This document shows positions 627 through 21,355 of a stretch of 64,000 nucleotides of DNA, one piece after another. The notes beneath the pieces were generated by a model that was given only the letters and a program-made list of their open reading frames with translations, was not told where the DNA came from and did not search any database. The stretch covers positions 32,001 to 96,000 of the forward strand of contig CAXXDQ010000006.1 in the NCBI GenBank assembly GCA_963664325.2, read 5' to 3'. The position numbers and the translations under genes were made by a program. Source of the DNA: Desulfomonilia bacterium. GTDB lineage: Bacteria > Desulfobacterota > Desulfomonilia > UBA1062. Positions within the stretch are counted from its first letter, which is position 1. Every line of letters starts with the position of its first letter.

Positions 627-633
627 AGTGTTA

Positions 634-660
634 TACCGGGGGACATGATGTCCCCCGGTA
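634..660. terminator. Perfect inverted repeat, probable (bidirectional) terminator
   Basis: TACCGGGGGACAT-G-ATGTCCCCCGGTA between convergent genes, 7 nt after the stop at 626. Confidence 0.65.
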
Positions 661-793
661 AGTTTCAATAAACATTTTACAAAGGCGCCAAATGGGCCAA
701 ATTCCTGACGTTCTTCTTCGAAAGTTTAAGGGTGCGTATGAACTACCCCTGATTCCTCATTTCAACATATATATTTAACGTTCTAAGCTTGTA

Positions 794-1504: not shown

Positions 1505-1705
1505 GATGAATCCTCCCGGGAGTAATTGTTATGGTAATTTTGAATATGCCACTATTTGATTTTGTTCACCATAAATATTTATCTTGTAAGCCAAAAAAAA
1601 TGAAATGTCTGGTCTCTCTACATTGACAGGATGGTATGAGTCTTAAAAGAATTGAGCTATACCAGCCTGACAAATATAAGGCTGAATTTTACAATGCCTG
1701 TGAAT

Positions 1706-1727
1706 GAAAATGATAATTATCGTTTTC
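1706..1727. promoter_or_regulatory. Fur/PerR-like palindromic operator upstream of hslO
   Basis: GAAAATGATAATTATCGTTTTC is a near-perfect palindrome; 14/19 match to the Fur box GATAATGATAATCATTATC. Confidence 0.4.
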
Positions 1728-1776
1728 CTTCAACATGGGATTGACATTGCCGGATATGAAACGGCATACCCATGTC

Positions 1777-2652: not shown

Positions 2653-2705
2653 CGGCATTGCATATATTTAATCTATAATTATTATCCATGAATAAGGGGA
2701 CGATT

Positions 2706-3269
2706 ATGAAACTGACTGATAGCGAAAAGGCCTTTCTTTTAAAACTTGCGCGCGAGACCATAAAAGCCCTGCTTCAGGGAAGGGGCATTGGGGATGTGAG
2801 CGTAGACAAAGCATCCATCACCAAAACATTGAAAGAAGAGCGTGGCGTGTTTGTCACACTCCATAAAGCTCATCATGAACTGAGGGGATGCATCGGCTAC
2901 ATACTGCCTATGCTTCCACTGTGGCAGGCCGTCATGGAAAACGCAAGAAATGCCGCTTTCAGAGATCCCAGGTTCTCGCCGCTCAAGAGGATGGAACTTG
3001 ACAGTATTGAGATTGAAATATCGGCACTGACCGTTCCAGCGGAAATCAAGGATATATCCGAATTCAGGATCGGCATTGACGGCATAATACTTAAAAAAGG
3101 CTTCCATCAGGCTGTATTCCTGCCGCAGGTTGCTCCTGAACAGGGATGGGATGCCGAGACCACACTCAATTACCTGAGCATGAAGGCGGGTCTATCTCCT
3201 GATGCATGGCGTGAAGGTGCAAGCTTCGAGACATTTCAGGCAGAGGTGTTCAGCGAAAGCAATGATTGA
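2706..3269 (+). CDS. amrA: AmmeMemoRadiSam system protein A (AMMECR1 domain)
   Basis: GVFVTL..LRGCIG, AAFRDPRF, FLPQVAPEQGWD, KAGL motifs. Confidence 0.9.
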   Translation: MKLTDSEKAFLLKLARETIKALLQGRGIGDVSVDKASITKTLKEERGVFVTLHKAHHELRGCIGYILPMLPLWQAVMENARNAAFRDPRFSPLKRMELDSIEIEISALTVPAEIKDISEFRIGIDGIILKKGFHQAVFLPQVAPEQGWDAETTLNYLSMKAGLSPDAWREGASFETFQAEVFSESND

Positions 3270-5229: not shown

Positions 5230-6698
5230 AGCGAATCATATTGGCCTGTTTATCAGGCCTGTTCTATTCACTGTCTTTCCCTTCATTCAACCTTTGGCCA
5301 TTTATATTTGTTTTTGCAGTGCCATTATTACTTGCTGCAGAGAATTCAAATGTTAAAGAATGTTTGGGGTTTGGCTTTTTGGCAGGACTTGTTGCCTGGG
5401 CCGGGAATCTTTACTGGGTGGCCTACATAATGGATATTTACGGCTTTATACCTTTGCCCCTGTGCGCCCTTATATTTTTACTGCTTATTTCTTACCTGGC
5501 CATTTATTTCGGTCTTTTTCTCATCTCGTGCAAATTTTTAATAAAATCCCCATTTTCAATAATAACCATTCCCGGGGTGTGGATTTTTCTGGAAATAATA
5601 AAATCATATGCATTTACAGGGTTCCCATGGTCTCTTGCCGGCTATGCTCTGGTTCCGTTCAACGCGATTGTACAGAATGCGGAATGGGGCGGTATATATG
5701 CACTTAGCGGACTTGCACTGACAGGCAATGTGGCTTTGTATAAGGCATTCAGGAGAGATTATATTCCGGCGATTTCTGGAATAGCAGTTATCGTCTGTTG
5801 TGTTGTTTGGGGGGGATGGCGCATGGACAGCCTGAAACTTGATGGCACAAACCTGAAAGTCGGAATCTGCCAGGCAAATATACCTCAGGTCCAGAAGTGG
5901 AGAAGGGATATGGTCAGTCCTACCATCGATATTTATAGAAGACTAAGCAGGGAGGCTGTATCTCAGGGTGCAGAAATTATAGTCTGGCCTGAAACGGCAT
6001 GTAATTTTTATCTGTTTCAGGAGTGGTCACCTACTGAGAGAATCATCGATATTTCAAAGGATACAGGTATACCTATGCTTGTCGGCAGCCCTGCCCTTGA
6101 AAACGATATGGTCTTTAACAGGGTATGGATGCTTGATAAAGGGCTGATCAGGGGATACTATGACAAGACACATCTAGTGCCTTTTGGAGAATACCTTCCG
6201 TTGCCTTGGCTTCTCGGTTTTCTTGGGAAACTTACGCAGGAAGTAAGCGATTTCTCCAATGCTGAAAAACTCGAACCTGTTGAAGATATTGGGACACTGG
6301 TTTGTTTTGAGAATGTGTTTCCGGAACTGGCTAGACGGCTTACCGCAAAAGGGGCTACCTGGCTCTTGACAGTATCAAATGATGCTTGGTTCCTTGACTG
6401 GTCAACATCGGAACAGCATTTGAAAACAGCAGTGATCAGGGCAATTGAAAACAGGCGCTACCTCATTATGCCGGTAAATCACGGGATATCTGCCGCTATA
6501 GATCCTTTTGGTAGAGTTATAAGCAGCCTGGGCCTCATGAAAGAGGGCTCTTTTACTGTAGAAATCAAAAAGCTCACATATAGAACTGTTTTCAGTAAAA
6601 TCGGGTTGCTGATAGGATGGATTTGGAGTTTTGCCGGTATAATAGCACTTGTCTGGGAGTTTTATAAAAAATACGACAGCCAAGTGTTTAAGGTTTGA
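5226..6698 (+). CDS. lnt: Apolipoprotein N-acyltransferase
   Basis: TM helices, TGFPW, QANI, WPETA, YDKTHLVPFGEY, VCFE, SNDAWF, RAIENRR. Confidence 0.95.
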   Translation: MKRIILACLSGLFYSLSFPSFNLWPFIFVFAVPLLLAAENSNVKECLGFGFLAGLVAWAGNLYWVAYIMDIYGFIPLPLCALIFLLLISYLAIYFGLFLISCKFLIKSPFSIITIPGVWIFLEIIKSYAFTGFPWSLAGYALVPFNAIVQNAEWGGIYALSGLALTGNVALYKAFRRDYIPAISGIAVIVCCVVWGGWRMDSLKLDGTNLKVGICQANIPQVQKWRRDMVSPTIDIYRRLSREAVSQGAEIIVWPETACNFYLFQEWSPTERIIDISKDTGIPMLVGSPALENDMVFNRVWMLDKGLIRGYYDKTHLVPFGEYLPLPWLLGFLGKLTQEVSDFSNAEKLEPVEDIGTLVCFENVFPELARRLTAKGATWLLTVSNDAWFLDWSTSEQHLKTAVIRAIENRRYLIMPVNHGISAAIDPFGRVISSLGLMKEGSFTVEIKKLTYRTVFSKIGLLIGWIWSFAGIIALVWEFYKKYDSQVFKV

Positions 6699-6790
6699 AG
6701 ACGGACGGAAAAATATCTGTTGAATTTTGATATTCCCTTTTGTATAAAACTCTTTCGCTTTTACTTCTTAAAGGGTAAGGGAGCATCATC

Positions 6791-8086
6791 ATGCCTAAGA
6801 TTAAGGCATTTAAAGGTATCAGGTACAATACCGGGACTGTAGAAATTACTTCAGCCATATGTCCCCCTTATGATGTGATTGCAGCATCACAGGTTGATGC
6901 CTATTATAATAAATCCCCTTACAATTCTATCAGACTGGTTCTCGGACAGCAGTTTCCAAAGGATACAAAGACAGATAATCGCTACACCAGGGCCAAGGAT
7001 TTTTATCTCGGATGGAAAAATAAAGGTGTTCTGATAAAGGATGAAAAACCTTCGGTATATTACCATGAGCAGACTTATACCATAGGAGACAAAACCTGCA
7101 CCAGAAAAGGGATTATTGCCGCAGTAAAAATGGATGAGAACGACAATTATGAAATTATGCCTCACGAATATACTCATAAAGGCCCCAAGATAGACCGCCT
7201 CAGGCTGATGATGGAAGTCAAGGCAAATCTGAGCTGTGTTTTCGGGATTTATACAGATAAAAACAAGCTTGTTGATACTGAAATAAAACCGTTGTTGAAA
7301 GAGATGCTCTGGGATTTTACTACAAACGAAGGTACACAGAAATTCTGGAAGATAGATTCACCGCAACAGATAAAGAAAATTGCGGGCATCCTTTCGGATA
7401 AGAAGATTCTTATTGCTGACGGTCACCACAGATATGACACGGCAAAGACATACAGGGACAGGATGAGGGCCACAACAGGTAAATCGGATGGCAACCAGCC
7501 ATTTGATTATGCATTATTCTATCTGAGCAATTCTGAAGACGGAGTATCTATCCTTCCTACACATAGGGTTATTGTTGACAGTATGGGAGTCGGCCTTGTT
7601 GATATAGAACACAGGGTTAAAGAACTTTTTAGGATTCTGCCTTTTGACAACAGGAAAGCATTTCTTGATTCACTAAAGAAAAATGGCAAGGGATATATGG
7701 GGCTAAGGGTGAAAGGTATTCCGAGATACTACATGCTTGAGCTCTCGGAAATGGAAGCGCTCGACAGGTTGATGCCTGACGACAGCCATCCCCTGCTCAA
7801 AACACTTGATGTCAACATCCTTCATACATGTATCATCGAGCCGATTGTAGGAATTGATTATTCGATGACTGCCAAAAGGATGGAATTTATAAGCAATGCA
7901 TCTGAGGCGCTTGAAATGGTCGAAAAAGAAAAGGCGGACATAGTATTTCTGCTTAACCCAAGTACGATTCAGGAAATTATGGCTATTGCTGAAGCAGGTT
8001 TGAGAATGCCGCAAAAATCGACATTCTTTTATCCTAAAATTCCTACAGGTCTTGTTTTTTATCCACTTGATGCGGGGACCAAGTAG
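6791..8086 (+). CDS. DUF1015 family protein
   Basis: PPYDVI, PHEYT, IADGHHRY, PTHR, MPQKSTFFYPK motifs. Confidence 0.9.
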   Translation: MPKIKAFKGIRYNTGTVEITSAICPPYDVIAASQVDAYYNKSPYNSIRLVLGQQFPKDTKTDNRYTRAKDFYLGWKNKGVLIKDEKPSVYYHEQTYTIGDKTCTRKGIIAAVKMDENDNYEIMPHEYTHKGPKIDRLRLMMEVKANLSCVFGIYTDKNKLVDTEIKPLLKEMLWDFTTNEGTQKFWKIDSPQQIKKIAGILSDKKILIADGHHRYDTAKTYRDRMRATTGKSDGNQPFDYALFYLSNSEDGVSILPTHRVIVDSMGVGLVDIEHRVKELFRILPFDNRKAFLDSLKKNGKGYMGLRVKGIPRYYMLELSEMEALDRLMPDDSHPLLKTLDVNILHTCIIEPIVGIDYSMTAKRMEFISNASEALEMVEKEKADIVFLLNPSTIQEIMAIAEAGLRMPQKSTFFYPKIPTGLVFYPLDAGTK

Positions 8087-8261
8087 AAGAAAAGATGTCA
8101 ATTATTAGGGAAAATAATTTCCTTTTGAAATGATAAAAAAAGGTTTATTATTTAATGAATCCATTAAATTCAATGCATTATAACATGGGGGGGTTGGTAT
8201 CTATATTGCTTAAACACTATTAAGTGTTAAGTATTTGTAAGTCGTGTCGAAGAGAAAATGT

Positions 8262-10844
8262 ATGACTAAGTGTTTAAAATTAACGACTTTTATAGTCTGG
8301 GTTACTTTTTTAATTACTATAACTGCATGCTCAGGTGGAGGAGGTAATGAGCCATATTCCATCAATGTGGAGACACAAGCCAAAAATATTACATCTCTTG
8401 GAGAATTTCCTGTCGGTATAAGAGACTATACACCTCCTGTAATAGAATTTACATCACCAGTATCCCAGAATCCTGTGACGACTGTAACAGATGATAAAAA
8501 CGGTTATCTTAAAGAGATTGTTAAAGGTGAAAAATGGGCACTTGATATTAAAGGTGAAGTAATGCCCTCGACCTTTGGGCCTGAGAAAAGGTCGCTTGAA
8601 TTCAAAGGCGTTTATGTTAACTGGCAACTCGTAGATTCAAGTAATGGAGACGATATTAAATGGGTGGACGGAAAGTTCGCCTTCACAAAAACTGTTTTTA
8701 TAACAAAAGAAGAACTGGCAAATACGTTCTATCCCATTACCATAGCAGCGGTTGATGAAAAGGGCTACGTGGCAGGTACTAAATCTGTGATTATCCTGCA
8801 GGACAAGGCTGCTAACACCATCGGTAGCGATCACCCTCTGACTAATTCCCTGCATTTATCTGGTAACAGTGAATTTGTTTCGAATGCTTTGTCCATGCTT
8901 GTATCACAGATTGAAGGCCTTAACTTTGCGCCTAATATGGGTGCAGTAACACTTTTGGATAATGATATAATCATCCCACGGACAGTGATGCTCCAGGGTA
9001 TTGAGATCAGTAATTATTCTATCAGCTCTAATAGTGCAAACTTCTGCTCTGTGAACCTCGATCTTAGAGTTTCCAATCTTGTGGTTGAATATACAAATAA
9101 TTTGTCCGTATTTAACAAAGGACAGAATATAATAAATATAAACATGAAAAATGTTGAGATTAACGGCCTGATTGTAGAACTGAGAATTGATGAAAACAAT
9201 GAAATCAGCGCCTACCTTAATGCAGGAGATATTGCTTTAGCAAAGGGTTCGGGTTTCGAGTATAATCTCGATACACCCTTTACCGAGATTTTCAACTTTC
9301 TGTCTGATAACGTGTTCAGTTTCCTTATTCAAGATGTTTTCAACCAATTAAAACAAAAACCCATACAGCTTAAAATAGGCTATAATGCCCTAAGGCTGCT
9401 TATTAAACAGTTAACCGGGAATAATGAGAAACTGACAACATTGACTGGATTGAAGTACTGCTCAACAGAAAACGGCGGCATTAAACTTGGCATGGATATG
9501 CATTTCCCTGAAGTTAAAAACCAGGGGATTAAAGGCAACCGTAACCTGATAAGCACATATGCTTCTTCCCAGGCAAAAAGCGATAAAATTAATCTGGCTT
9601 TAAATTACGGGAATTCTTCAATAGCTTTTAGTGACGATTACTTAAACCAGCTTCTGGCAGTGGACTTTATCTCTGATCCCGACAATCCCCAGGAGATTAC
9701 CAGTCTTGATCTGAATGAACTCATTGATCAGATGAATATCAACCTTGGGAATTACAAGCTCTGGCCTTGGTTGAGGGATGGAAATGACAGACTCCCCAAA
9801 ATAAAAATCAAGTACCTAATGCTTACACCACCCATTCTGAAAATTCATGGGGATGGCAATTATATTGGCAGTCTGTATGTGAAAAATATTCTGGTGGAAG
9901 TCCATGAGCTGGATAATCAAGGAAATGAGAGCTGTCTTCTCGCTAGGCTCTCGATTGATCTTGACATTGCCATGAAGTGGGAGAATGGGAATTTCGTGCT
10001 TGAATGCGGCAAAGAAAATGCAAGTTACACTCTGCTTTTCAACAAGCTTTATCCGTTATTCCTGCCGCCGCAAATGAAGGAAATCCATACCTATATCGCA
10101 AACAGCCTTAACCAGTTATTGAGTAAAATTGCACTTATCGGGTATCCTGTTACAAATGTAGCCGCTATGAATGATGCTTATCTGGTCTTCAGTGGCAACC
10201 TGATAAATAAGGATAATATAGAATCCACCGACCCGGATATAATTTATGATGGAGCCGATTGGCAGTATCGATACTTCTCAACCAAGCCCAATGCCGATAC
10301 GGTTGATAAGTTAAGATTTTTTGGAAGCAATGACGGTTCAATATCATTTAATACGCTAGATAGTAGTAATTATGATCAGGATAAAAATAAATACAAGGGA
10401 ATCAAGGATCTTGACTGGAATGATTCCTGTGGTTTTTTCTATGATTTCGGTGAAGATTCATACAAGCTTATAACAGGGGTTTCCTTTACCAGGAATATTG
10501 TATTTGACTGGATTACCGGTAACACTGTAGAGTTTTATGAAGAGTTTGCAGTAATGTGTATTGCCTATGGCAATGCGGTCATATCTACAGATTATGAATA
10601 CGTACCCAGCGAAACCTGTTTAATTCCTTATGAGCTGACTATTGAGGATAAGCCTGAACTGGTGCTGCCTGATTCTCAGACATTTAGTATTCCGCTCAGC
10701 AGTAACGTGGGTATTGGAATCAGGTTTAAAAAAGATCCCTCAATTCCATTAAAACTCAATCCGATCGAATTGAAGACAGCCATTGCTTCGAACATTGTTA
10801 TAAAATATATCGATCTGAGTCTTAACACGGGCCTGAATTTTTAA
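8262..10844 (+). CDS. Large lipoprotein with BPI/TULIP-like central region
   Basis: Long AT-rich ORF; lipobox ITA-C followed by SGGGG; shares motifs with the ORF at 3..626. Confidence 0.75.
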   Translation: MTKCLKLTTFIVWVTFLITITACSGGGGNEPYSINVETQAKNITSLGEFPVGIRDYTPPVIEFTSPVSQNPVTTVTDDKNGYLKEIVKGEKWALDIKGEVMPSTFGPEKRSLEFKGVYVNWQLVDSSNGDDIKWVDGKFAFTKTVFITKEELANTFYPITIAAVDEKGYVAGTKSVIILQDKAANTIGSDHPLTNSLHLSGNSEFVSNALSMLVSQIEGLNFAPNMGAVTLLDNDIIIPRTVMLQGIEISNYSISSNSANFCSVNLDLRVSNLVVEYTNNLSVFNKGQNIININMKNVEINGLIVELRIDENNEISAYLNAGDIALAKGSGFEYNLDTPFTEIFNFLSDNVFSFLIQDVFNQLKQKPIQLKIGYNALRLLIKQLTGNNEKLTTLTGLKYCSTENGGIKLGMDMHFPEVKNQGIKGNRNLISTYASSQAKSDKINLALNYGNSSIAFSDDYLNQLLAVDFISDPDNPQEITSLDLNELIDQMNINLGNYKLWPWLRDGNDRLPKIKIKYLMLTPPILKIHGDGNYIGSLYVKNILVEVHELDNQGNESCLLARLSIDLDIAMKWENGNFVLECGKENASYTLLFNKLYPLFLPPQMKEIHTYIANSLNQLLSKIALIGYPVTNVAAMNDAYLVFSGNLINKDNIESTDPDIIYDGADWQYRYFSTKPNADTVDKLRFFGSNDGSISFNTLDSSNYDQDKNKYKGIKDLDWNDSCGFFYDFGEDSYKLITGVSFTRNIVFDWITGNTVEFYEEFAVMCIAYGNAVISTDYEYVPSETCLIPYELTIEDKPELVLPDSQTFSIPLSSNVGIGIRFKKDPSIPLKLNPIELKTAIASNIVIKYIDLSLNTGLNF

Positions 10845-10956
10845 TAAGCTGGCTTGAATTCGCAAAGGACTCTATCAGGAAAAGTCCCGACCAATAAACC
10901 CGGGATGAAAATGATATTTCGTTATTTGTCGATATGTATTTTTATGATAAGCATGT

Positions 10957-11175
10957 TTGAATATGAAATGCAGATTCGGCGATGAAGACATGTATGAATT
11001 CCATGAAGGAGATGCAAAAGAGAAGTGTTTTCTGTGCAGGAAGTCATGTAAAAAAACATTTAGTGTAAGAGAAATCAAGTCACAGAAAATGGTTCATCTC
11101 TGCGGCGGTTGCATGGTCAGTAACATCTCTGAATATATGCTTGACAATACAAGGCCCTGGGTTGAACCGGATTAA
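10957..11175 (+). CDS. Small putative Zn-ribbon protein
   Basis: 72 aa; CFLC...HLCGGC (CxxC + CxxC). Confidence 0.6.
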   Translation: MNMKCRFGDEDMYEFHEGDAKEKCFLCRKSCKKTFSVREIKSQKMVHLCGGCMVSNISEYMLDNTRPWVEPD

Positions 11176-11417
11176 AGGTTATACTGGGAATTAATCCGGA
11201 AAGTAGTACCGGCCACCACATATTAAGATACCTCAAGTCCGCCGTTACGGAAAAAAATATTTTTACAGAAAGTTAACTTCCCTTAAACTCCTTCTTTATT
11301 CTCTGTTGCTCTTGCTGCTTCGAATCCCTGTCCTGTAAGCTCCTGCCTTAACTGTTAACGAATGGATTAAATGTTATCTGTAATCAGGATCAATGCAGTC
11401 TTTTCATTCAACGACAC
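11176..11417 (-). pseudogene. Decayed receiver-domain (response regulator) gene
   Basis: Minus-strand translation LILITDNI*SIR*QLRQELTGQGFEAARATENKEGV*...GGLEV...IPSIT follows REC beta1-alpha1-beta2 pattern with several stops. Confidence 0.55.
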
Positions 11418-11422
11418 GTGTT

Positions 11423-11815
11423 TTATAAACCGATAAGGTTTTTAACGTATGTAATCAAATCGTTGGCCTTAATGGGTTTGGTGAGTACCAAATCGACTTT
11501 TGCAGCATCACCAGACGGTTCGGCTGCTTCAGAGTAAGGGCCCTGAATATCTACCGCGCTGAGTAATACAAGCTTGATCTTTTTTGTAGAGTCGGTAGCC
11601 CTGAGTTTAGATACCACATTGAATCCTTCACTCCATGTCTCCATCATCATGTCAACTATTGCAAGATCAGGCTTAATTTTTGAAGCAGCCTCAACCCCTG
11701 ATTTTCCATCCTCAGCCAAAAAAACTTCGAAGCCACCGTTTTCAAGAATAAGTTTTGTTGCAGCGCAGAAGTCATTATCATCATCGATAATCAGGATTTT
11801 TTTCTTTGTGCTCAT
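11423..11815 (-). CDS. Single-domain response regulator (CheY-like)
   Basis: ILIIDDD, DLAIVDMMM (phospho-Asp), LSA, KP motifs; GGAGGT RBS. Confidence 0.92.
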   Translation of the reverse strand: MSTKKKILIIDDDNDFCAATKLILENGGFEVFLAEDGKSGVEAASKIKPDLAIVDMMMETWSEGFNVVSKLRATDSTKKIKLVLLSAVDIQGPYSEAAEPSGDAAKVDLVLTKPIKANDLITYVKNLIGL

Positions 11816-12617
11816 TCTTTACCTCCATCTGTATATTGGGATTTGTCAGCAATATTGATACCAATATGTATCATAGAAATGTTATTGAAACAAATAAAGT
11901 CAAAAAAACCATAATATGTGTCATGGGGCATATTTCCCCATATCTGATACGCTTTTCCCCATGCCTGTCAGTCTTTAGGTTGTATCACGTAATTTCTGAC
12001 CTTGAGTCTGTTTTTTCCAGTACATGCCCGGGAAAACAATTATTGGAATATGATATGCAAAATTATCAATGGTCTTTTCAATATTGATTTTCTTGATTTC
12101 AGCAAGAATAATACTTTTTGAGTCCGGATTGGATTAAGGGGTTTTGTATTTTGTCATACAGCATTCAAAATCTTTTCTTTATGTTCATATTCCCAATTAC
12201 ATTTCCTGACCGGGAATGGGATTTTATCGATATCTTTCCTTTTCTTTAAGAAGATTTGTTTTTGTCGCAGTGCCTTTTCAAAAACGACTATAATAGTTTT
12301 CATAGACCGGTATGGTTTGTACTCCCTGAAAGGTTTATAAAATAAACATTCATCCAATAGTATTGATAGCATTCTAGACTCTGGAATTTATATATGAAGC
12401 TCCAATAGTTCAACACGCCTTTGGAAAGTTCATCCCTCCTTATGTTAAAAGTTTGAACTCATGAGTAGTAGATGCATCGGATTTCATTTCAATTATCTCG
12501 ATCTAGCTGCTTCAAATCCAGAGGCGCTGTTTTACGAATGGTACAAAATGCCCCGTTTATAATGATTCACTGAACTGCCGCTGAAGCCAACTAGATAAAA
12601 ATAAAAGAGAAATTTTG

Positions 12618-12633
12618 TGGCTCCATAATTGCT
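12618..12633 (+). promoter_or_regulatory. Sigma54 (-24/-12) promoter of hydrogenase operon
   Basis: TGGCTC-CATAA-TTGCT matches TGGCAC-N5-TTGCW with exact GG-N10-GC spacing, ~66 nt upstream of the ATG at 12700. Confidence 0.65.
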
Positions 12634-12699
12634 AAATTAAAATGAACGATTAAGGTCTGACCAGATGCATACATTTTAAAATAAAGCGGAGGTGTAAAT

Positions 12700-14499
12700 A
12701 TGTGGACAAGCAGTAGTAAGGGAGGGAGCTGTGTTGAGCCGGCGGTAAAACAGTTTCTGCCTCCATGTCAGATGCAGTGTCCTATCAACGAAGACATTCA
12801 GCGGACAAATGTTCTGATATCTCTTCTTCCTTCTGATCCGGCAAAGGCAAAAGAGGGGATCCAGCAGATAGGAGACTATTTGTTTGACAGGAATCCATTC
12901 TTTCCTGTTTGCGGCTACATCTGCGGCATCTGTGAGCTCGGGTGCAATTACAAGGTGAAGGGCGGATCAATCCGCAGAAGGCTTTTAAAACGTTTCCTGT
13001 CTGAACAGTTCCTGGAGGATCTTGATAAGAAAGAAGAATTTGATACTGTGAAGAACAAGGAGAATGTGGCTGTCATAGGCGGTGGTCCGGGCGGCTTGAT
13101 GTGTGCATTCAACCTGAGCCGCAAAGGCTACAGGGTAACGATATTCGAGGCATCCAACAGGCTCGGCGGAACGCTCTGGCTGATACCCCACTACAGGCTT
13201 CCGAAGGATGTCCTGGTGCGAGTCATGCAGAACATGGTCAGGCTTGCAGGTATCGAGGTCAAGTATAATGCAAAGATAGGCGATTCCAAACTTTCAATTG
13301 ACAAGCTCCGGAAAGAAGGATTCAAGGCCGTCTTCATTGCAAAGGGGACTCCTTCCCCGCGTATTCTAACCTATAATGGTGAGGTGGTTGCAAACCAGGA
13401 TTTGGCTGGAGTTATGTACGGCCAGACATTCCTGTATGAGGTAAGCCGGGGAATCCTTGAAAAAGACTATTTTGATGGAAAGAAAATCATAGTAATCGGT
13501 GGAGGAAACGTCTCGTTCGATGTTGCACGCTCGGCAAGACGGCTTGGAGGACAGGTTACCGTAGTTGCACTTGAGTGTGAGGATAAAAAATCGAAAGACG
13601 GCATACCTGCTGACCATGATGAAATACGAGGAGCATGGGAGGAAGGTGTCGATGTCGTATACTCCCGCGGCGTAAAAAAAATCATCGGCAGAAGCGGCAA
13701 ATTCACGGGCATAGAATCACCGAAATGTACAAGCGTTTTTGATAAGAGCGGAAGGTTCAATCCGCAAATGGATGAGAATGATATAATAACTATCAACGGC
13801 GATATACTTGTACTTTCAGTGGGCCAGGGTCCTGAAAGGATATTTTTTGAAAGGGAGGGACTGCTTGACGAAAAAGGAAGGCTTGATGTCGACCCGGTGA
13901 CTCTGCAGAGCAGAAAGAAAGACTATGTGTTTATAGGCGGCGACGTGAGGAAAGTCGGATTCATGGTAGATGCAATGCATGAAGGAATTGAAGCCGCCGA
14001 GACAATAGAAAGGTATTTCAAAGGCATTGACCTGTATGCAGGGAGAAAACGGGACTTTGAAGCGCTCACCATACCGGTTCTTAACAATGAGGATTATCGC
14101 CCTGAACCGGAAGTGGTATGGATACCGCCTGAAAAACGCCTGCACTTCAAAATGTTCGAAAGGGGATTCTCTCTGGGTGAGGCGATAGAGGAAGCCAAGC
14201 GCTGCCTTTATTGCGGTCCTTGCGTGTCGTGCAAGGCATGCGTTTCTATTGGAATCAATGAAGAACTGCCTGTTATCCAGATAAACGAGTCAATCTGCAG
14301 CGGCTGTGGGATCTGTCTGACGGCATGCCATTACAATTCTGCGCATCTTGTTAATATGAACGGTGTGCTTGTTTCAAAGACGGATATGTTCAGGTGCAAG
14401 GCCTGCGGTCTTTGCGTTTCTGCATGCCCGACTGGAGCGCGTTCAATCATCGGGACCGATATTGAAGAGAGGCTGAGGGACGCCCATGCTTCCCTGTAG
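12700..14499 (+). CDS. FAD/NAD(P)-dependent Fe-S oxidoreductase, GltD/NfnB/DsrL-like with C-terminal 2x[4Fe-4S] ferredoxin domain
   Basis: PCQMQCP..CGYICGICELGC; GGGPGG (FAD); GGGNVSFDVAR (NAD(P)); EAKRCLYCGPCVSCKAC; CSGCGICLTAC; CKACGLCVSACP. Confidence 0.88.
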   Translation: MWTSSSKGGSCVEPAVKQFLPPCQMQCPINEDIQRTNVLISLLPSDPAKAKEGIQQIGDYLFDRNPFFPVCGYICGICELGCNYKVKGGSIRRRLLKRFLSEQFLEDLDKKEEFDTVKNKENVAVIGGGPGGLMCAFNLSRKGYRVTIFEASNRLGGTLWLIPHYRLPKDVLVRVMQNMVRLAGIEVKYNAKIGDSKLSIDKLRKEGFKAVFIAKGTPSPRILTYNGEVVANQDLAGVMYGQTFLYEVSRGILEKDYFDGKKIIVIGGGNVSFDVARSARRLGGQVTVVALECEDKKSKDGIPADHDEIRGAWEEGVDVVYSRGVKKIIGRSGKFTGIESPKCTSVFDKSGRFNPQMDENDIITINGDILVLSVGQGPERIFFEREGLLDEKGRLDVDPVTLQSRKKDYVFIGGDVRKVGFMVDAMHEGIEAAETIERYFKGIDLYAGRKRDFEALTIPVLNNEDYRPEPEVVWIPPEKRLHFKMFERGFSLGEAIEEAKRCLYCGPCVSCKACVSIGINEELPVIQINESICSGCGICLTACHYNSAHLVNMNGVLVSKTDMFRCKACGLCVSACPTGARSIIGTDIEERLRDAHASL

Positions 14500-14523
14500 C
14501 CGTATTTGAAGGAGATACTAAAA

Positions 14524-14943
14524 ATGGGTGCATATAATCCTAAAATAATATGTTTCGCATGCAAGTTCGGCTGGGGCTACCTTGAAGGCGAATCCGTCAA
14601 GAAGATGAAAGGTGTTGTCCCGATTTTGTGCAGCGGCAAGATAGATATAACTCATATAGTCAACGCCTATGCAAAGGGAGCTGACGGTGTACTGATACTG
14701 GCTTGCAACGAAGGCGACTGCCATTTCCACATCGGCAACTTCCAGGCGAGGAAAAGGGTTCTGATCCTGAAAAAGACACTCAAGGCGTTCGGGATCGAGC
14801 CTGAAAGACTTCAGATAAGGCTTGATCATGACCCTTCGGGAAATTCAATTCCCAACCTGATGATGCAAATGGCCGAAAAGATAAAGGACCTGGGAAAGCT
14901 CTCGGCCGGGAAAGAACCTGCCCCGGCATTAAACCATCTTTAA
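14524..14943 (+). CDS. mvhD: Hydrogenase Fe-S delta subunit (MvhD/FlpD family), divergent
   Basis: CSGKID, GADGVLILAC.EGDCHF.GN, GIEPERL; AAGGAG RBS before ATG 14524. Confidence 0.85.
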   Translation: MGAYNPKIICFACKFGWGYLEGESVKKMKGVVPILCSGKIDITHIVNAYAKGADGVLILACNEGDCHFHIGNFQARKRVLILKKTLKAFGIEPERLQIRLDHDPSGNSIPNLMMQMAEKIKDLGKLSAGKEPAPALNHL

Positions 14944-14961
14944 TAATAAGGGAGAATAGAA

Positions 14962-15924
14962 ATGCAATCTAAACCGAAAGTTGCCATATACTGGCTTTCA
15001 GGCTGCGGCGGATGCGATGAAGCAATAGTCGATCTGAACGAAGCCATTCTGAAAGTGGCCGATGCAATAGAGATCGTTCTCTGGCCTGTGGCCATGGACT
15101 TCAAGTATGACAGCATCAGGGCGTTGGATGACGGAGAGATTACACTTAGCATAATCAACGGCTCGGTGCGTAACTCGGACCATCTTGAAATGGCTCATCT
15201 GCTCAGAAAGAAATCACAGCTTGTCCTTGCGTTCGGCGCTTGTGCATGCTTTGGAGGAACCTGCGGCCTGGCAAATTTCCGCTCGAAAAAGGATATTTTT
15301 GACTGGGTATATGAGAATGCCCCGACAGTCGTTAACCCTAAACACAATGTCCCGCTTACCGAAAGTGTAGACAACGGCCACAAGCTAACGTTGCCGGAAA
15401 TTTGGGAGAAGGTGTATCCGCTCAATGAGATAATTGACATAGACTATTATCTGCCCGGATGTCCACCGCCTCCAAACCTGATCGCTCAGGCGGTTTTTGC
15501 AGTTGTTGAAGGCAAGCTTCCGCCCAAGGGAACGGTTCTTTCGCCGGGCAACGCCCTTTGCGACTCCTGTCCGAGGAACGCGACCAAGCCACTTAAGCTC
15601 GAGATAAAAGAGATTACAAGGATTCATGAAGTAGAAGCTGACCCCTCGAGGTGCTTCCTTGCTCAGGGTATAATATGCCTTGGTCCTGCAATCCGTTCAG
15701 GATGCGGGGAAACCTGTATCAATACAAATGTTCCATGCCGCGGATGTTTCGGCCCGGTTGATGGTGTCGATGATGCCGGTTCCAAGTTTCTCTCGAGTCT
15801 GGCAATACTTCTCGCCGCCGAGACCGAAGACGCAGCCGGTGCAATTGTCGAAAAACTTGTTGATCCAGCAGGGTACTGCTACAGGTTCAGCCTGCCTTCA
15901 GCCCAGCTGTCACCTAAAAGATAA
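14962..15924 (+). CDS. mvhG: Group 3c [NiFe]-hydrogenase small subunit
   Basis: SGCGGC, FGACACFGG, PGCPP, CDSCPR, CFLAQGIICLGP, CRGCFGP. Confidence 0.92.
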   Translation: MQSKPKVAIYWLSGCGGCDEAIVDLNEAILKVADAIEIVLWPVAMDFKYDSIRALDDGEITLSIINGSVRNSDHLEMAHLLRKKSQLVLAFGACACFGGTCGLANFRSKKDIFDWVYENAPTVVNPKHNVPLTESVDNGHKLTLPEIWEKVYPLNEIIDIDYYLPGCPPPPNLIAQAVFAVVEGKLPPKGTVLSPGNALCDSCPRNATKPLKLEIKEITRIHEVEADPSRCFLAQGIICLGPAIRSGCGETCINTNVPCRGCFGPVDGVDDAGSKFLSSLAILLAAETEDAAGAIVEKLVDPAGYCYRFSLPSAQLSPKR

Positions 15925-15943
15925 TGAATAAAGGAGTGATATC

Positions 15944-17407
15944 ATGTCACGCAAGATAACAATTGATCCGATCACCAGGCTGGAAGGTCACGGCAAGATA
16001 GAGATCTTCCTTGATAATAAGGGAAATGTACAGGATGCTTACTGGCAGGTTGTTGAACTTCGGGGATTTGAAAGATTCTGTATAGGCAGACCTGCCGAGG
16101 AGATGACAAGGATTGTTCCTAACATATGCGGAGTATGTCCGTCGGCTCACCATATGTCAGGCACAAAAGCCCTTGATGCCCTTTTCGGGGTTGAGCCTAC
16201 GCCTGCTGCAAAACTTATCAGGGAACTGGAATTCAATGCATTTTATGTAGAAGACCATTACATCCACTTCTTTTTCCTGGCCGCGCCTGACTTTATTATG
16301 GGTCCGGATGCAGACCCTAAAGACAGGAACATCCTGGGCGTTATCGGCAAGGTCGGAAAAGAGATAGGCGGCAAGGTCATTGAAATCAGGAAACGCAACC
16401 GCGACATAATCCGCCATATCTTCAGCAAAGCCCCGCACCCGGAAGGCGGACTTCCTGGAGGCGTACCGAGGGGATTCACGGAAGCGGATCGTGCATGGAT
16501 AAAGGAAACGGCCCGCGATTCTCTTGATTTTGCACTGTATGCAATCAAGCTTTTCAAAGACCTGGTGCTTGGAAACAAGTCGAGCCTTGATCTGATTCTG
16601 AACGACGCTTATAAACTCAAGACCCATTATATGTCTGTAGTCGATGATAACAACAAGGTCGATTTCTATGACGGCAAAGTCAGAGTTGTGGACTGGAACG
16701 GAAAGGAAGTCTACAAATTCAATGGCGCCGACTATGAAAAGTATATTGGCGAATGGGTTGAACCTTGGACATATATCAGGCTTACGCATCTTAAACCCCT
16801 GGGTTGGAAAGGCCTTGTTGAAGGCGAGGGCACATCGCTTTACAGAGTTGCCCCGCTTGCAAGACTGAACGCCTCCGATGGCATGAAGACGCCTCTGGCG
16901 GACAAGGAGGCAAAGGCCATGTTTGAGACTCTGGGCGGCAAACCGGCTCATCATACACTGGCAATGCACTGGGCCAGACTCATATGTGCTCTACAGGCGG
17001 CAGAGCATAATGTAATGATTGCCGATGACCCTCTGCTTACCAGCAAGGATATCCGCAACATGAACTTCAAGCTTCAGAAAAAAGGAGTCGGTGTGGTGGA
17101 AGCCCCGAGAGGAACGCTTTATCATCATTACGAGACAGATGACAACGGCATAATCACAAAAGCCAACCTGATTGTCGCGACACAGAATAACGCAGCCCCG
17201 ATATGCCTGTCGGTCAAGAAGGCTGCACAGGAGTTCATAAAAGGACCGGATGTTAAGGAAGGATTCCTAAACAGGGTGGAAATGGCATTCAGGGCGTATG
17301 ACCCGTGCCTTTCCTGTGCAACACATTCCCTGCCCGGAACGATGTCGATGAGTGTAAACATCAGGGACGCGCAAGGCAATGTCATTAGAGAAATCAACAG
17401 GCATTAA
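15944..17407 (+). CDS. mvhA: Group 3c [NiFe]-hydrogenase large subunit
   Basis: IDPITRLEGHG, RGFE, L1 ICGVC, EAPRGTL, L2 RAYDPCLSCATH plus cleavable C-terminal extension. Confidence 0.95.
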   Translation: MSRKITIDPITRLEGHGKIEIFLDNKGNVQDAYWQVVELRGFERFCIGRPAEEMTRIVPNICGVCPSAHHMSGTKALDALFGVEPTPAAKLIRELEFNAFYVEDHYIHFFFLAAPDFIMGPDADPKDRNILGVIGKVGKEIGGKVIEIRKRNRDIIRHIFSKAPHPEGGLPGGVPRGFTEADRAWIKETARDSLDFALYAIKLFKDLVLGNKSSLDLILNDAYKLKTHYMSVVDDNNKVDFYDGKVRVVDWNGKEVYKFNGADYEKYIGEWVEPWTYIRLTHLKPLGWKGLVEGEGTSLYRVAPLARLNASDGMKTPLADKEAKAMFETLGGKPAHHTLAMHWARLICALQAAEHNVMIADDPLLTSKDIRNMNFKLQKKGVGVVEAPRGTLYHHYETDDNGIITKANLIVATQNNAAPICLSVKKAAQEFIKGPDVKEGFLNRVEMAFRAYDPCLSCATHSLPGTMSMSVNIRDAQGNVIREINRH

Positions 17408-17864
17408 TAAAAAACCCAGAACTCTCATATTAGGCATGGGCAACCCTATCCTGTCCGATGACGGGGTAGGGCTTGTTCTTGCGGAAAAGCTCAGGGGAAG
17501 GATCGAAGGCGTGGATGTGGCATCGAATCCGATGATCGATCTGAGCCTGCTCGATGATATCATCGGCTATGATGTTGTTTACATGATAGATGCAATGACG
17601 ACTCGCGGGGGAAAACCCGGTGAATTGAAAAGGATTCATGAAGAGGATTCAATCGGTACACTGCACTTGTTCTCATCACACGGTATGAATTTTTTTGAAC
17701 TTATGAAGCTGGGCAGGTCAATAGGTTATAAGATGCCGGAAATTGGCGGCATATACGGTGTCGAGATTGGCGATAAGGTTGAATTCAATGAATCGCTGTC
17801 TCCGGCTGTTGAAAATAAATTGCTTGAGATTGTCGAAACCATCTGCAGAGATATAACCGGATGA
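17379..17864 (+). CDS. Hydrogenase maturation protease
   Basis: LGMGNPILSDDGVG, IDA, SSH motifs; last gene of the hydrogenase operon. Confidence 0.92.
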   Translation: MSLEKSTGINKKPRTLILGMGNPILSDDGVGLVLAEKLRGRIEGVDVASNPMIDLSLLDDIIGYDVVYMIDAMTTRGGKPGELKRIHEEDSIGTLHLFSSHGMNFFELMKLGRSIGYKMPEIGGIYGVEIGDKVEFNESLSPAVENKLLEIVETICRDITG

Positions 17865-17940
17865 TATCTATATCCATCGGAGACCAAGATTGTATTTGAA
17901 AAAGTTATGAATGTTTATGTAATGTAATCTTAAAGGAAAA

Positions 17941-18735
17941 TTGGATATGGATATACTGCAGAGCGTTGTCTATGGCCTTGTTCAGGGTTTGGGCGAATTC
18001 CTGCCGATATCAAGTTCGGCGCATCTTGTGCTCGTCCCCTGGCTTTTCAAATGGGATGATCCCGGTTTGACCTTTGACATAGCACTTCATCTGGGAACCC
18101 TCATATCCGTAATCGTTTATTTCTGGAAAGACTGGCTTAACCTTATAACAAAAGGGTTCAGCGATTATAAAAGCAGGGAGGGCAGACTGTTCTGGTATCT
18201 GGCGGCAGCGAGCATCCCGGGTTCAATCGGTGGTTTTCTGCTTGAAAATAAAGCCGAGACCGTATTCAGGGCACCTTTGCTGATCGCCATCATGCTGATT
18301 GTCATGGGGGCTATCCTGTTTTTGGCGGATCGCATGAGTTCAAAAAAAACCGGACTGGAAAATATCACTTTCAAAACCAGTCTTATGATTGGCATATCTC
18401 AGATTCTTGCGATCATCCCGGGTGTTTCGCGCTCGGGGATTACCATGACTTCAGGCCTGCTGCTGGGAATGACCAGGGATGGTGCCGCCAGGTTTTCCTT
18501 TCTGCTGTCAACGCCGATTATTTTCGGAGCGGCACTGGTTAAAGTTCCTGCAGTTGTAAAAAATCCTTCGATGATTGATACAGGCTTTTTAACCGGTATG
18601 CTGGTCTCCTGCATTGTCGGCTTTGCAAGCATCAGCATCCTTCTCCGTTATATTCAGACAAGGGATTTCATGCCATTTGTCTGGTACCGTTTCATCCTGG
18701 GAGCCATTGTAATTGGAGTTGTTGTATTGCGCTGA
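17941..18735 (+). CDS. uppP: Undecaprenyl-diphosphate phosphatase BacA
   Basis: QGLGEFLPISSSAH, PGVSRSG, ARFSFLLS. Confidence 0.95.
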   Translation: MDMDILQSVVYGLVQGLGEFLPISSSAHLVLVPWLFKWDDPGLTFDIALHLGTLISVIVYFWKDWLNLITKGFSDYKSREGRLFWYLAAASIPGSIGGFLLENKAETVFRAPLLIAIMLIVMGAILFLADRMSSKKTGLENITFKTSLMIGISQILAIIPGVSRSGITMTSGLLLGMTRDGAARFSFLLSTPIIFGAALVKVPAVVKNPSMIDTGFLTGMLVSCIVGFASISILLRYIQTRDFMPFVWYRFILGAIVIGVVVLR

Positions 18736-18739
18736 TGTT

Positions 18740-19339
18740 TTATTTCCTAACCGGGAAATAACTCTCCACAACCTGTTCAACCCGTTCAAGCCAATTTTGG
18801 CGCTCTTCAGGTGTACTTGTAACTATTACCCTGAAAATCTCCCGGTGGAATACGGGCACACCGCACAAGTCGAATATGCAGTTTTCCCATATCAGCCCGA
18901 GAGGGTCACCGAATACTGTACGTTCTCTTTTGGCCGGGGTGTTGGCGGTGTTGAAAACAACTGCCGCCTTCGCTTTCAGGAGTCCGACCGGGATTCCTTC
19001 TCCGTCATCACCTTCGAGGAACCTGTAGGCGACTCCGGCTCTTAACACACGGTCAATCCATCCCTTTAGTATTGCAGGCGGCTGTCCCCACCAGTTAGGG
19101 TGTACTATGATGATACCGTCGGCATTTGCAATTTCAAGGCAATGCTGCTTGATTTCAAAAGGGATGTCGGCATTATACGGTATTTCACAGGCAGTTATGA
19201 CCGGATTGAAGTTCTGCTTATAAAGGTCGTGGTACATTACGCAATGTCCGTTTGCTTTTATTTTCTCTGCTGCGGTCCGGGCGATTGCATGGTTAAAGCT
19301 TCCCTCATCCGGATGTGCAAGGATGATGCTGATATTCAT
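18740..19339 (-). CDS. Flavodoxin-like NAD(P)H dehydrogenase (quinone), Flavodoxin_2 family
   Basis: AHP..SFNHAI, PNWWGQPPAILKGWIDRV. Confidence 0.9.
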   Translation of the reverse strand: MNISIILAHPDEGSFNHAIARTAAEKIKANGHCVMYHDLYKQNFNPVITACEIPYNADIPFEIKQHCLEIANADGIIIVHPNWWGQPPAILKGWIDRVLRAGVAYRFLEGDDGEGIPVGLLKAKAAVVFNTANTPAKRERTVFGDPLGLIWENCIFDLCGVPVFHREIFRVIVTSTPEERQNWLERVEQVVESYFPVRK

Positions 19340-19967: not shown

Positions 19968-21200
19968 TCAGAACGCCAGGATCATAGTAACGCCGCCCAT
20001 TGCCTCATAGCCGAGTTTGTTGTAGCCAGTGCCCAGGAAGTTCTTGTCTGCGTCTCTGCCGTTGTACATATAAAGAAATTCGGGGCATACCGTCAGGTAG
20101 TCCTTTATTTTGATGTCGCAGTTGGCGAAAGCGCTCCATGTGTAGATGTGCCTCTCGTAACCTTCAGCAACTATACCCGTTGATGACCTCTGGTAACCGC
20201 CTCCGATCCTCGGGGTGAAATTCTTGATGGGCGCCTCGATCTGCAGCCATCCTCCGTATGTGATGACGTCCTTTAGTTTGTTGCCGTCCCATTGAGGTGT
20301 CCCCATGAGCGTCAGATACTGGTTGTCATCGTATTCAGCTATATATATCGGATCAAAGAAAGACGGCCTTGCGTCAATCCCTTCCAATACGGAGAGGTTC
20401 TGGCCATACCATCCTTCCGCCTGGATATTTACCGGTTTGAGATTCGCTTCGATCCCCAGGGAAAGCGCATATGTAAGGATGTCCGTGTTGTTTAAATCCG
20501 CTATGCCCTTCGGCTTGAGCTGGTACTGCTGAATGTATCCGCTCGGATTGATTGTAAGAAGATCCAATGGCTTCCATGTCAGGTTCAAGGCCAGCGCCGG
20601 CAAATAGTTTTGAACCTGAAAGGATTCTCCATTGTCAAGTTCGTTGTTTTCCACATAGCTGTCCTCGATACTGGAATCGGTCTTGACTTCCTCCAGCGCG
20701 ATGTCAAAGCCCAGGTTTTCGCTTTTATGGCTGAAGCGTACCTGTAAAGACCTTTTCCATGGATCAAGTCCGCCGTAACCGTCCAGGCAGTTGGCGTTAT
20801 AGAGGTTCTGCTTCGGGGCCATCACCGAGAAGACTATAGGTGCCTTGCCAAACAGTATCTGATTCTCGTCAGAGAAGTTGTAGGCCCCGTAGATTGCATA
20901 CAGCTCTATCTTATAGTCAGCACTGTTGTGGTACCTGATTTCAGTGTAGGCGTTCAGATTTTTATACTCCACTTTCATGTTGATGTTGCTGGGATCGTCA
21001 ATGGCTATATACTGCTGGGTCTCCTTGTCGCTGGTGTAATCGGTCGGCACATCTCCGTGGAACTGATAATCCCATCCCGCTTCGACCCACACGCTTGCCC
21101 CCAGCGTCGCCTTCGCACCGGCAACATTAAAGTCCACCCCTGCATATACGGGCCCTGCCAAAAGCAAAACAGCTGCTAAAATTATTAACCCCTTTTTCAT
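19968..21200 (-). CDS. Outer-membrane beta-barrel (porin-like) protein
   Basis: AGGAGGAG RBS, signal peptide MKKGLIILAAVLLLAGPVYA, aromatic amphipathic strands, C-terminal Phe. Confidence 0.75.
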   Translation of the reverse strand: MKKGLIILAAVLLLAGPVYAGVDFNVAGAKATLGASVWVEAGWDYQFHGDVPTDYTSDKETQQYIAIDDPSNINMKVEYKNLNAYTEIRYHNSADYKIELYAIYGAYNFSDENQILFGKAPIVFSVMAPKQNLYNANCLDGYGGLDPWKRSLQVRFSHKSENLGFDIALEEVKTDSSIEDSYVENNELDNGESFQVQNYLPALALNLTWKPLDLLTINPSGYIQQYQLKPKGIADLNNTDILTYALSLGIEANLKPVNIQAEGWYGQNLSVLEGIDARPSFFDPIYIAEYDDNQYLTLMGTPQWDGNKLKDVITYGGWLQIEAPIKNFTPRIGGGYQRSSTGIVAEGYERHIYTWSAFANCDIKIKDYLTVCPEFLYMYNGRDADKNFLGTGYNKLGYEAMGGVTMILAF

Positions 21201-21355
21201 GACACTCCTCCTTGGTATTGTTGTTTGATTAAGAATATCGGCTGTTTGATATTTCAAACTTGAATAAAATTGATACAAAAGTGATTTGGACTTATTTATT
21301 TTCTAATGATCATCTTAACGGATACTGTTTTGCAGGAGTGTATACTTCTGTCCGG

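Follow-up and report, generated by a model that had tools for sequence, protein, structure and literature searches.

A conserved operon of a Desulfomonilia bacterium associates a group 3c-type [NiFe]-hydrogenase with a GltD-type flavoprotein in place of Hdr

Between positions 12700 and 17864 of a 64 000-nt stretch of DNA from a Desulfomonilia bacterium (GenBank assembly GCA_963664325.2, contig CAXXDQ010000006.1, positions 32,001 to 96,000 of the forward strand; the whole of this stretch is called the window hereafter), the list of open reading frames (ORFs) contains five same-strand ORFs, which code for a flavoprotein, for the MvhD, MvhG and MvhA subunits of a [NiFe]-hydrogenase and for a maturation protease (Table 1). 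The first four genes are separated by gaps of 24, 18 and 19 nt, and mvhA overlaps the protease gene by 29 nt. A preliminary description, made from the letters of the DNA, had proposed this very five-gene operon; all its ORFs are present as described, and Pfam and NCBIfam agree on their names. The operon is real and conserved, and in it a GltD-type module, predicted to use NAD(H), takes the place of Hdr beside a hydrogenase of group 3c type; how the encoded complex would function is what we infer in the following.

Table 1. Features of the hydrogenase operon (positions in the window) and of the HdrL gene cluster found on another contig of the same genome (G000)
Feature	Position	Strand	Remarks
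Putative sigma54-type -24/-12 element TGGCTCCATAATTGCT	12618..12633	+	TGGC-N7-TTGCW pattern, 67 nt before flavoprotein ATG
Fe-S flavoprotein, 599 amino acids (aa)	12700..14499	+	permuted GltD/NfnB-like FAD + NAD(H) module (predicted), C-terminal 2x[4Fe-4S] ferredoxin domain, terminal helix
mvhD, [2Fe-2S] adaptor subunit, FlpD family, 139 aa from ATG 14524	14524..14943	+	FlpD 94.4 bits (Pfam/NCBIfam)
mvhG, [NiFe]-hydrogenase small subunit	14962..15924	+	VhuG 202.6 bits, Oxidored_q6 81.6 bits
mvhA, [NiFe]-hydrogenase large subunit, C-terminal extension for processing	15944..17407	+	VhuA 370 bits
Hydrogenase maturation endopeptidase	17379..17864	+	TIGR00072 89.3 bits, cutoff 47.45
HdrL cluster	L011 (G000 contig C8, 306000-325999), locus positions 5596-14815	-	1481-aa HdrL, MvhD, 337-aa Fe-S protein, HdrC-like, HdrB-like, Fer4_22, NfnA/PyrK-like

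MvhA displays the motifs ICGVCPSAH and AYDPCLSCATH, which fit the L1 (ICGxCxxxH) and L2 (AYDPCxxCATH) signatures as defined in a passage of PMC6085437. Its best NCBIfam model, VhuA, scores under the 800-bit equivalog cutoff, and the nearest solved chains are 7t2r_D (370 bits) and 5odc_F (350 bits), with 5xf9_D at 314 bits. As in group 3c enzymes, genes for MvhG (VhuG) and MvhD (FlpD) adjoin that of the large subunit. The N-terminus of MvhG shows no recognizable twin-arginine signal. The mvhD ORF is open from a TTG at 14506; the ATG at 14524 is the likelier start, because it is preceded by GGAG and corresponds to the position where relatives begin. In MvhD, Cys13, Cys36, Cys61 and Cys66 are invariant among nine sequences.

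In the flavoprotein, Pfam recognizes a Pyr_redox_2 domain (92 bits, residues 122-427), a Fer4_20 domain at 21-106 whose score of 24.4 bits is just below the cutoff of 25.8, and, at 527-580, matches to 4Fe-4S dicluster models. Among NCBIfam models, the generic PRK12771 'NAD(P)-binding protein' comes first (310 bits for a cutoff of 516), and the HdrA models of the same collection match residues 515-587 only. The motifs announced by the preliminary description are all present, i.e. EEAKRCLYCGPCVSCKAC at 497-514, two CxxCxxCxxxC motifs at 533-543 and 566-576, and a second Rossmann strand ending in VVALE at 288-292, but the N-terminal Fe-S domain that it had named is incomplete on its own: the 'RCLxC' segment with which NfnB opens sits here at 475-511. 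This 'EAxRCLxC' segment pairs with the N-terminus of NfnB and, in NfnA, with positions 552-598, and the resulting permuted order is that of NfnA, StnC and HdrL. The nearest solved sequences are NfnA (9n5u_A, 186 bits) and StnC (8oh5_C), then NfnI-L (5jca_L, 158 bits) and Thermotoga maritima NfnB (TmNfnB; 4ylf_B, 152 bits). An AlphaFold2 model of the flavoprotein (pLDDT 88.2, pTM 0.85) gives the same ranking by fold: with Foldseek, NfnA and StnC reach a TMq of 0.71-0.73, in alignments of about 615-640 columns, and NfnL/NfnB one of 0.61 (TMt 0.76-0.77). Judging by the 5jca_L and 4ylf_B matches, the protein has the GltD fold and the dinucleotide site of an NfnB, with predicted FAD and two predicted [4Fe-4S] clusters.

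That the protein ends with a 2x[4Fe-4S] domain resembling the C-terminus of HdrA, as had been suggested, is borne out by comparison with solved structures: residues 519-582 match the C-terminal ferredoxin domain of HdrA in 5odc_A (569-631, E 4e-10) and also that of 9sfi_A, and in the HdrA2 model positions 572-623 match the flavoprotein and 640-773 match MvhD, in the same ferredoxin-then-MvhD order. When the flavoprotein is aligned to the HdrL of its own genome, residues 17-519 correspond to HdrL 158-644 (33% identity) and residues 528-597 to HdrL 1409-1476, and, apart from short dinucleotide-fold stretches, the HdrA flavin domains have no counterpart in the flavoprotein; according to this alignment, it would be, in outline, HdrL minus its HdrA parts.

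The C-terminal domain had also been proposed to act as an HdrA-type docking tail for MvhD. The predicted complex agrees with this proposal, as do natural fusions of the two proteins (see below): in the model, MvhD docks on the ferredoxin domain and the last helix. The ipSAE median is 0.68 (runs at 0.74, 0.57 and 0.68), versus 0.00 for the best of three controls; the ipSAE mark is reached by 58 of 80 solved complexes and by 2 of 110 mismatched pairs, a calibration that holds only roughly here, own alignments having been used. The runs share at least 87% of their contacts, with a partner pLDDT of at least 82. On the flavoprotein side, the predicted interface comprises residues 567-574 (in the second cluster motif), 583-599 (the last helix), 500-504, 514-524 and 38-44, and on the MvhD side the residues around the four invariant cysteines.

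The flavoprotein belongs to a well-delimited family. A word-index search for homologs scored 7998 candidates, of which 4706 were at E <= 0.001. The 120 best homologs listed have lengths of 559-613 aa and identities of 62-91%, for a query coverage of 93-100%; the sources among the homologs listed include Syntrophales, Syntrophobacteraceae, Dehalococcoidia, Deferrisomatales and one 'Methanolliviera' metagenome-assembled genome (MAG). In a 50%-identity library, scores fall from 656 to ~315 bits, the level at which HdrL-like proteins of 1400-1500 aa start. A FastTree phylogeny of the core region (149 tips, rooted on the genome's GltD/NfnB-like paralog) groups the family in one clade, with a support of 0.99, and places the genome's own HdrL elsewhere. 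Successive sisters of this clade are P0126 (fused to a receiver domain; 0.98), P0130 (0.949) and P0129 (fused to MvhD; 1.0), and 23 of the 149 tips carry MvhD. The nodes beyond the clade are weak (support of 0.26 and 0.11). The possibility that the flavoprotein is a fragment of HdrL, which the preliminary description had itself considered, is ruled out by its full length, by its tight clade and by its identity of only 33% to the HdrL of the same genome.

The closest sister, P0126 (724 aa, 52% identity), ends with a response-regulator receiver domain (residues 609-719; Pfam, 111 bits), which points to a control by phosphorylation of such a redox module in some organisms. Two further permuted GltD-like paralogs are found in the genome, at G000 C3:812314-813801 and C3:1009000-1010409; they are 31-32% identical to the flavoprotein and cover its residues 9-508.

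The association with the hydrogenase genes is conserved and widespread among anaerobes. In all seven loci found in genome contigs, which come from Syntrophales, other Desulfobacterota, Dehalococcoidia and Bipolaricaulota, the order flavoprotein-mvhD-mvhG-mvhA (the cassette hereafter) is kept; the protease gene follows in five of them, precedes in one and is unseen in one. The synteny survey called for by the preliminary description has recovered this gene order in several phyla. A further survey, at E <= 1e-100 and with 1.5-kb flanks, covered 301 genomes sampled evenly across the window's phylum, and 16 of them contain a flavoprotein match. Six of these matches, including that of the window's own genome, are 62-100% identical and followed by mvh genes as far as the flanks reach, and all five close orthologs outside the own genome (62-71% identity) keep the gene order within these flanks. 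In four others, about 54% identical, a single frame of ~727-739 aa includes MvhD and is followed by mvhG and mvhA. Pfam analysis of the fusion of locus L030 places FlpD at 621-720, after the dicluster domain at 527-583, and three of eight distant representatives scanned are also fused to FlpD. The last six matches are 35-38% identical, have no mvh genes within 1.5 kb and were not counted as cassette; the neighbours of one such protein gave no Pfam match. The distribution of the cassette is patchy, since the gene was found in none of three other genomes of the window's own family.

Two loci encountered in these searches deserve mention on their own account. Locus L035 (G149:C70) contains, at positions 57-3234, two tandem copies of a 31-37%-identical flavoprotein subfamily, with no mvh genes in the flank. 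Locus L018, from a MAG titled Candidatus Methanolliviera sp., carries a bacterial-type cassette (64% identity) on a 22-kb contig of this archaeal MAG, and could result from horizontal transfer or from a binning artefact.

Which nucleotide the flavoprotein would use can be approached through the second Rossmann strand. Where NADPH-using relatives read VY-RR(T/S), the flavoprotein reads V-A-L-E-C-E-D-K-K, with L291-E292 in place of YRR. Neither residue varies among 26 family members, and in 51 sequences reaching down to 30% identity both are conserved to at least 90%. It is well established that NAD is favoured when the second strand ends with an acidic residue. According to excerpts of PMC7596348, YRR holds the phosphate of NADPH in NfnB, and kinetic measurements showed that the cofactor of DsrL proteins is NADP(H) when YRR is present and NAD(H) when it is absent. 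The replacement of YRR by an invariant L-E therefore points to a preference of the flavoprotein for NAD(H), and the alignments and the DsrL kinetics both favour NADH over NADPH, as had been proposed.

Whether the FAD would bifurcate electrons can be approached in a similar way. Lys97, in the sequence 'LLKRF' or 'LKRF', aligns with K170 of StnC, counted along the alignment, where NfnI-L and TmNfnB read 'LERF'; it is at least 90% conserved, Glu being found in two family members. The Glu ligand of the FAD-proximal [4Fe-4S] cluster of NfnB is thus not found at this place. A section of PMC10482914 shows that the FAD of StnC is non-bifurcating and that its proximal cluster has Lys170 where NfnB has Glu. 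No NfnA/NfnS-like, Bfu or HydBC-like partner gene is present in the operon or among its neighbours. With a lysine as in the non-bifurcating StnC, and without an NfnA/NfnS-like or Bfu partner in the operon, the ferredoxin-confurcating option that the preliminary description had kept in reserve is disfavoured.

Since L-E replaces YRR, Lys97 is as in StnC and no second acceptor module is encoded in the operon, it seems to us reasonably likely that the operon encodes a linear, non-bifurcating H2:NAD(H) oxidoreductase. The flavoprotein, MvhD, MvhG and MvhA would form a soluble cytoplasmic [NiFe]-hydrogenase of four subunits, matured by the co-encoded protease, which would reversibly couple H2 to NAD+/NADH through one linear electron wire. 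This wire would start at the [NiFe] site of MvhA, run through three [4Fe-4S] clusters of MvhG and the [2Fe-2S] cluster of MvhD, and continue through the two [4Fe-4S] clusters of the ferredoxin domain and the two GltD-type [4Fe-4S] clusters to FAD and NAD(H). The FAD would be an ordinary converter between two-electron and one-electron steps, as in StnC, NfnA(Bfu), GltD and DsrL, not a bifurcating flavin. The genes and their domains, the gene order, the natural fusions, the states of the motifs and the predicted interface are observed, and it is from them that we infer which cofactors and which substrate are involved, how the reaction would run and that the flavin would not bifurcate.

The rest of the genome has to be considered as well. 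None of the 23 CCG/HdrB matches found genome-wide lies on the window's contig, and neither does any HdrA-domain match; the HdrABC partner genes that go with group 3c hydrogenases are thus missing from this contig, Hdr-type genes being found on other contigs. The earlier statement that the flavoprotein comes 'instead of HdrABC' is therefore valid for the operon only, since an HdrL-MvhD-HdrC-HdrB cluster exists on another contig (Table 1). The genome holds exactly two FlpD genes, that of the cassette and the one after HdrL. The HdrL carries a YRR-type motif in its GltD insert, and the NfnA-like gene of its cluster (279 aa) is distant from the window operon. A second HdrA-like gene, with CCG proteins, is found on contig 4. 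Further hydrogenases are encoded in the genome: one NiFe large subunit scores 699 bits, another NiFe match lies on contig 3, and there is a single FeFe enzyme. A dsrA gene is present, with a score of 567 bits, above the cutoff. The organism probably reduces sulfite or sulfate or lives as a related syntroph, and the reaction may run in either direction, H2 uptake or H2 evolution. HdrA-like genes occur in four of the five other cassette-bearing genomes; the fifth is an incomplete 1.3-Mb Bipolaricaulota MAG with a single MvhD and no HdrA match.

Several observations weigh against a plain H2:NAD(H) enzyme. The acidic stretch at the end of the second Rossmann strand is followed by basic residues, K296 and K297, which may leave room for NADP(H) use. 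There are 12 invariant cysteines outside the C-terminal ferredoxin domain (residues 23, 27, 71, 75, 78, 82, 343, 502, 505, 508, 511 and 514), for eight expected ligands, so that an extra cluster or a branch point is possible. The score of the flavoprotein-MvhD model may partly reflect likeness to solved HdrA-MvhD complexes rather than binding of this particular pair. Lastly, with an HdrL-MvhD-HdrCB set elsewhere in the genome and HdrA-like genes in most of the other cassette genomes, cross-talk or a larger assembly may exist. The alternative readings are, in our opinion, of low probability, though not all to the same degree. The Mvh module, with or without the flavoprotein, could serve Hdr-type proteins encoded elsewhere, i.e. 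those of the HdrL-MvhD-HdrC-HdrB cluster of contig 8 or the HdrA-like/CCG proteins of contig 4, the acceptor being a disulfide such as that of DsrC. The genome does offer such partners, in its HdrL followed by MvhD, an Fe-S protein and HdrC-like and HdrB-like proteins and in its second HdrA-like locus, as do the four other genomes with HdrA-domain genes, and the organism has dsrA. However, the HdrL has an MvhD of its own, and the MvhD of the cassette is a distinct one, whose match to the FlpD profile begins only at position 28-29, here as in each of the five further genomes searched; gene order and fusions tie it to the flavoprotein, and the incomplete Bipolaricaulota MAG has the cassette and its single MvhD with no HdrA match. 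We consider such a partnership unlikely.

It is quite unlikely, in our view, that the same complex bifurcates or confurcates, its NfnB-like FAD, helped by the surplus cysteines, merging the electrons of NADH and reduced ferredoxin onto the Mvh hydrogenase for H2 production, or operating in reverse. The fold is that of GltD/NfnB, and NfnB/NfnL members (5jca_L, 4ylf_B) bifurcate at this FAD; the surplus invariant cysteines could form an extra cluster; and the nearest solved large subunit, 7t2r_D, whose entry name is 'NiFe hydrogenase large subunit', belongs to what we take to be the bifurcating NiFe-HydABCSL enzyme. Arg166, which aligns with R239 of StnC and R201 of NfnB, is invariant, but this arginine is conserved in the non-bifurcating StnC too and does not discriminate. 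Lys97 replaces the Glu of bifurcating NfnB/NfnL, the operon has neither an NfnA/NfnS-type second acceptor module nor a HydBC module, and NAD+ takes a hydride, which makes a second acceptor unneeded. Should the complex confurcate nevertheless, it would be a third, independently evolved kind of electron-bifurcating hydrogenase, beside the HydABC/Bfu-type and the Mvh-Hdr enzymes. An H2:NADP+ oxidoreductase, i.e. the same complex linked to NADP(H), appears very unlikely: the GxGxxA/S fingerprint (GGGNVS/A) is common to NADPH-using relatives, and Lys296 and Lys297 occupy the positions of the two arginines of YRR in TmNfnB, but Tyr has become Leu, the invariant Glu292 and an acidic insert precede the lysines, Lys297 is variable across the family, and the DsrL proteins of the PMC7596348 excerpts use NAD(H) when they lack YRR. 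A substrate other than a pyridine nucleotide, either a sulfur compound, in the manner of a SudA-type 'sulfide dehydrogenase', or another protein partner, is the most improbable of the proposals. GltD-family members do serve many acceptors, and the best NCBIfam model of the flavoprotein is only a generic one, falling short of its cutoff; against this, its two Rossmann folds are intact and conserved, as are the dinucleotide fingerprints, and the site binds NAD(P)H in every close solved relative.

The linear H2:NAD(H) enzyme that we favour would combine parts of several known systems. With MvhADG-HdrABC or VhuADG-HdrABC of hydrogenotrophic methanogens (group 3c; 5odc, 9sw2, 9sfi) it shares an MvhA with L1 and L2, MvhG, MvhD, a maturation protease and a 2x[4Fe-4S] ferredoxin domain of the HdrA-C-terminus type beside MvhD. 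However, the operon encodes neither the thioredoxin-reductase-like flavin domain of HdrA nor HdrB or HdrC, the partner being instead a GltD-like flavoprotein of predicted NAD type, and since the cassette has no heterodisulfide site, bifurcation of the methanogen type is not expected. The modules StnC (StnABC, 8oh5) and NfnA (NfnABC, 9n5u, 9bov), its best matches by sequence (186 bits) and fold (TMq 0.71-0.73), have the same permuted order, with 'RCLxCG' after the flavin core and a Lys at the K170 position. Unlike the flavoprotein, they are fused to NuoG/formate-dehydrogenase-like domains, feed a bifurcating core of the HydBC type and use NADPH (YRR), whereas the cassette module stands alone, ends with its ferredoxin tail at residue 599 and would feed or drain a [NiFe]-hydrogenase. 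The same permuted module, followed by a C-terminal ferredoxin domain and then by mvhD, is found in HdrL, or 'type III' HdrA with a GltD/NfnB insert, of sulfate reducers, Moorella, ANME-1 and Bathyarchaeota; these proteins, unlike the flavoprotein, contain one or two flavin domains of HdrA and usually go with HdrBC, and the clade of the cassette flavoprotein is separate from HdrL (support of 0.99-1.0). HdrA proteins with GltD/NfnB inserts are described in passages of PMC12054007 and PMC9012536, and the former reports type III hdrA beside mvhADG in Bathyarchaeota and hypothesises a link between NADH and H2.

The domain plan of the flavoprotein, which is the level at which the two were compared, also fits that of DsrL, the NAD(P)H:acceptor oxidoreductase of DsrAB systems: an N-terminal Fe-S domain and FAD and NAD(P) Rossmann folds are followed by a linker of ~100 aa and a docking 2x[4Fe-4S] domain, according to the domain criteria in the PMC7596348 excerpts. 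In contrast with DsrL, its partners would be MvhD and the hydrogenase, not DsrAB, and its gene is outside the dsr cluster. The NAD(P)-linked [NiFe]-hydrogenases of groups 3d (Hox/SH, 5xf9) and 3b (sulfhydrogenase, 9nez) are soluble, cytoplasmic and catalyse the reaction proposed here, H2 + NAD(P)+, but their diaphorases are unrelated, HoxFU (NuoF-like, with FMN) or the sulfhydrogenase beta and gamma subunits being used where the cassette has a GltD-like FAD protein and MvhD. Our literature search found no biochemical or structural study of the cassette. Similar clusters of Syntrophobacter fumaroxidans, 'Frh (Sfum_2221-24)' and 'Mvh1 (Sfum_3535-37)', which may correspond to the cassette, are mentioned only in proteome papers (PMC5947623 and PMC8691401).

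Transcription of the operon probably starts from the sigma54-type promoter of Table 1. The TGGC-N7-TTGCW pattern occurs once in the window, versus 1.6 occurrences expected, a count that is not above chance, and the weight of the match comes only from the recurrence of a similar position in orthologs. In the orthologous operon of locus L015, a match lies 63 nt before the ATG (TGGCACTACTATTGCT), the spacer having otherwise diverged, and in that of L026 it lies 99 nt before the ATG; no match to the pattern was found in the remaining loci with upstream sequence. An rpoN gene is present in the genome, as are 16 strong matches to enhancer-binding proteins, all of these matches being on contigs other than the window's. 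Within rpoN, which is outside the window (G000 contig C4, ~720077-720554), a run of A's divides the part coding for the DNA-binding domain between two frames, the frame with the RpoN box (ARRTVAKYR) being shifted; this is either a homopolymer assembly error or a real frameshift, and in the latter case the sigma54 promoters of the organism would be silent. A scan of 11800-18800 with consensus promoters and terminators gave 11 promoter-like and six terminator-like sites, both at the level of shuffled sequence, and the operon ends were not set by them. A search for sequencing runs returned four, from one study, none of which is on record as RNA.

The genes that flank the operon are unrelated to it: upstream, a lone receiver-domain gene on the opposite strand and, downstream, an undecaprenyl-diphosphatase gene (BacA). 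The receiver-domain gene (130 aa, 11423-11815, minus strand) is the only one in an AT-rich, gene-poor spacer of ~1.8 kb, which comes after an 866-aa ORF at 8244-10844 (plus strand) with no Pfam match at E <= 1e-4. Another ORF with no Pfam match, of 436 aa, is found at 19968-21278 (minus strand), beside a family-4 glycoside hydrolase gene and two CoA-transferase genes.

In the annotation of genomes and metagenomes, hydrogenases of group 3c are routinely taken for 'heterodisulfide-reductase-linked, bifurcating' enzymes. If the cassette does encode a plain H2:NAD(H) enzyme, such annotations mislead models of energy metabolism for many uncultured Desulfobacterota, Dehalococcoidia, Bipolaricaulota and others. 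The cassette, with its four structural genes, is small and seemingly well suited to expression and assay. The combination of an HdrA docking tail with MvhD provides a natural example of plug-and-socket reuse between redox modules, and the compact GltD-type module, wired through MvhD, would then represent a third and structurally distinct diaphorase solution for NAD-linked [NiFe]-hydrogenases.

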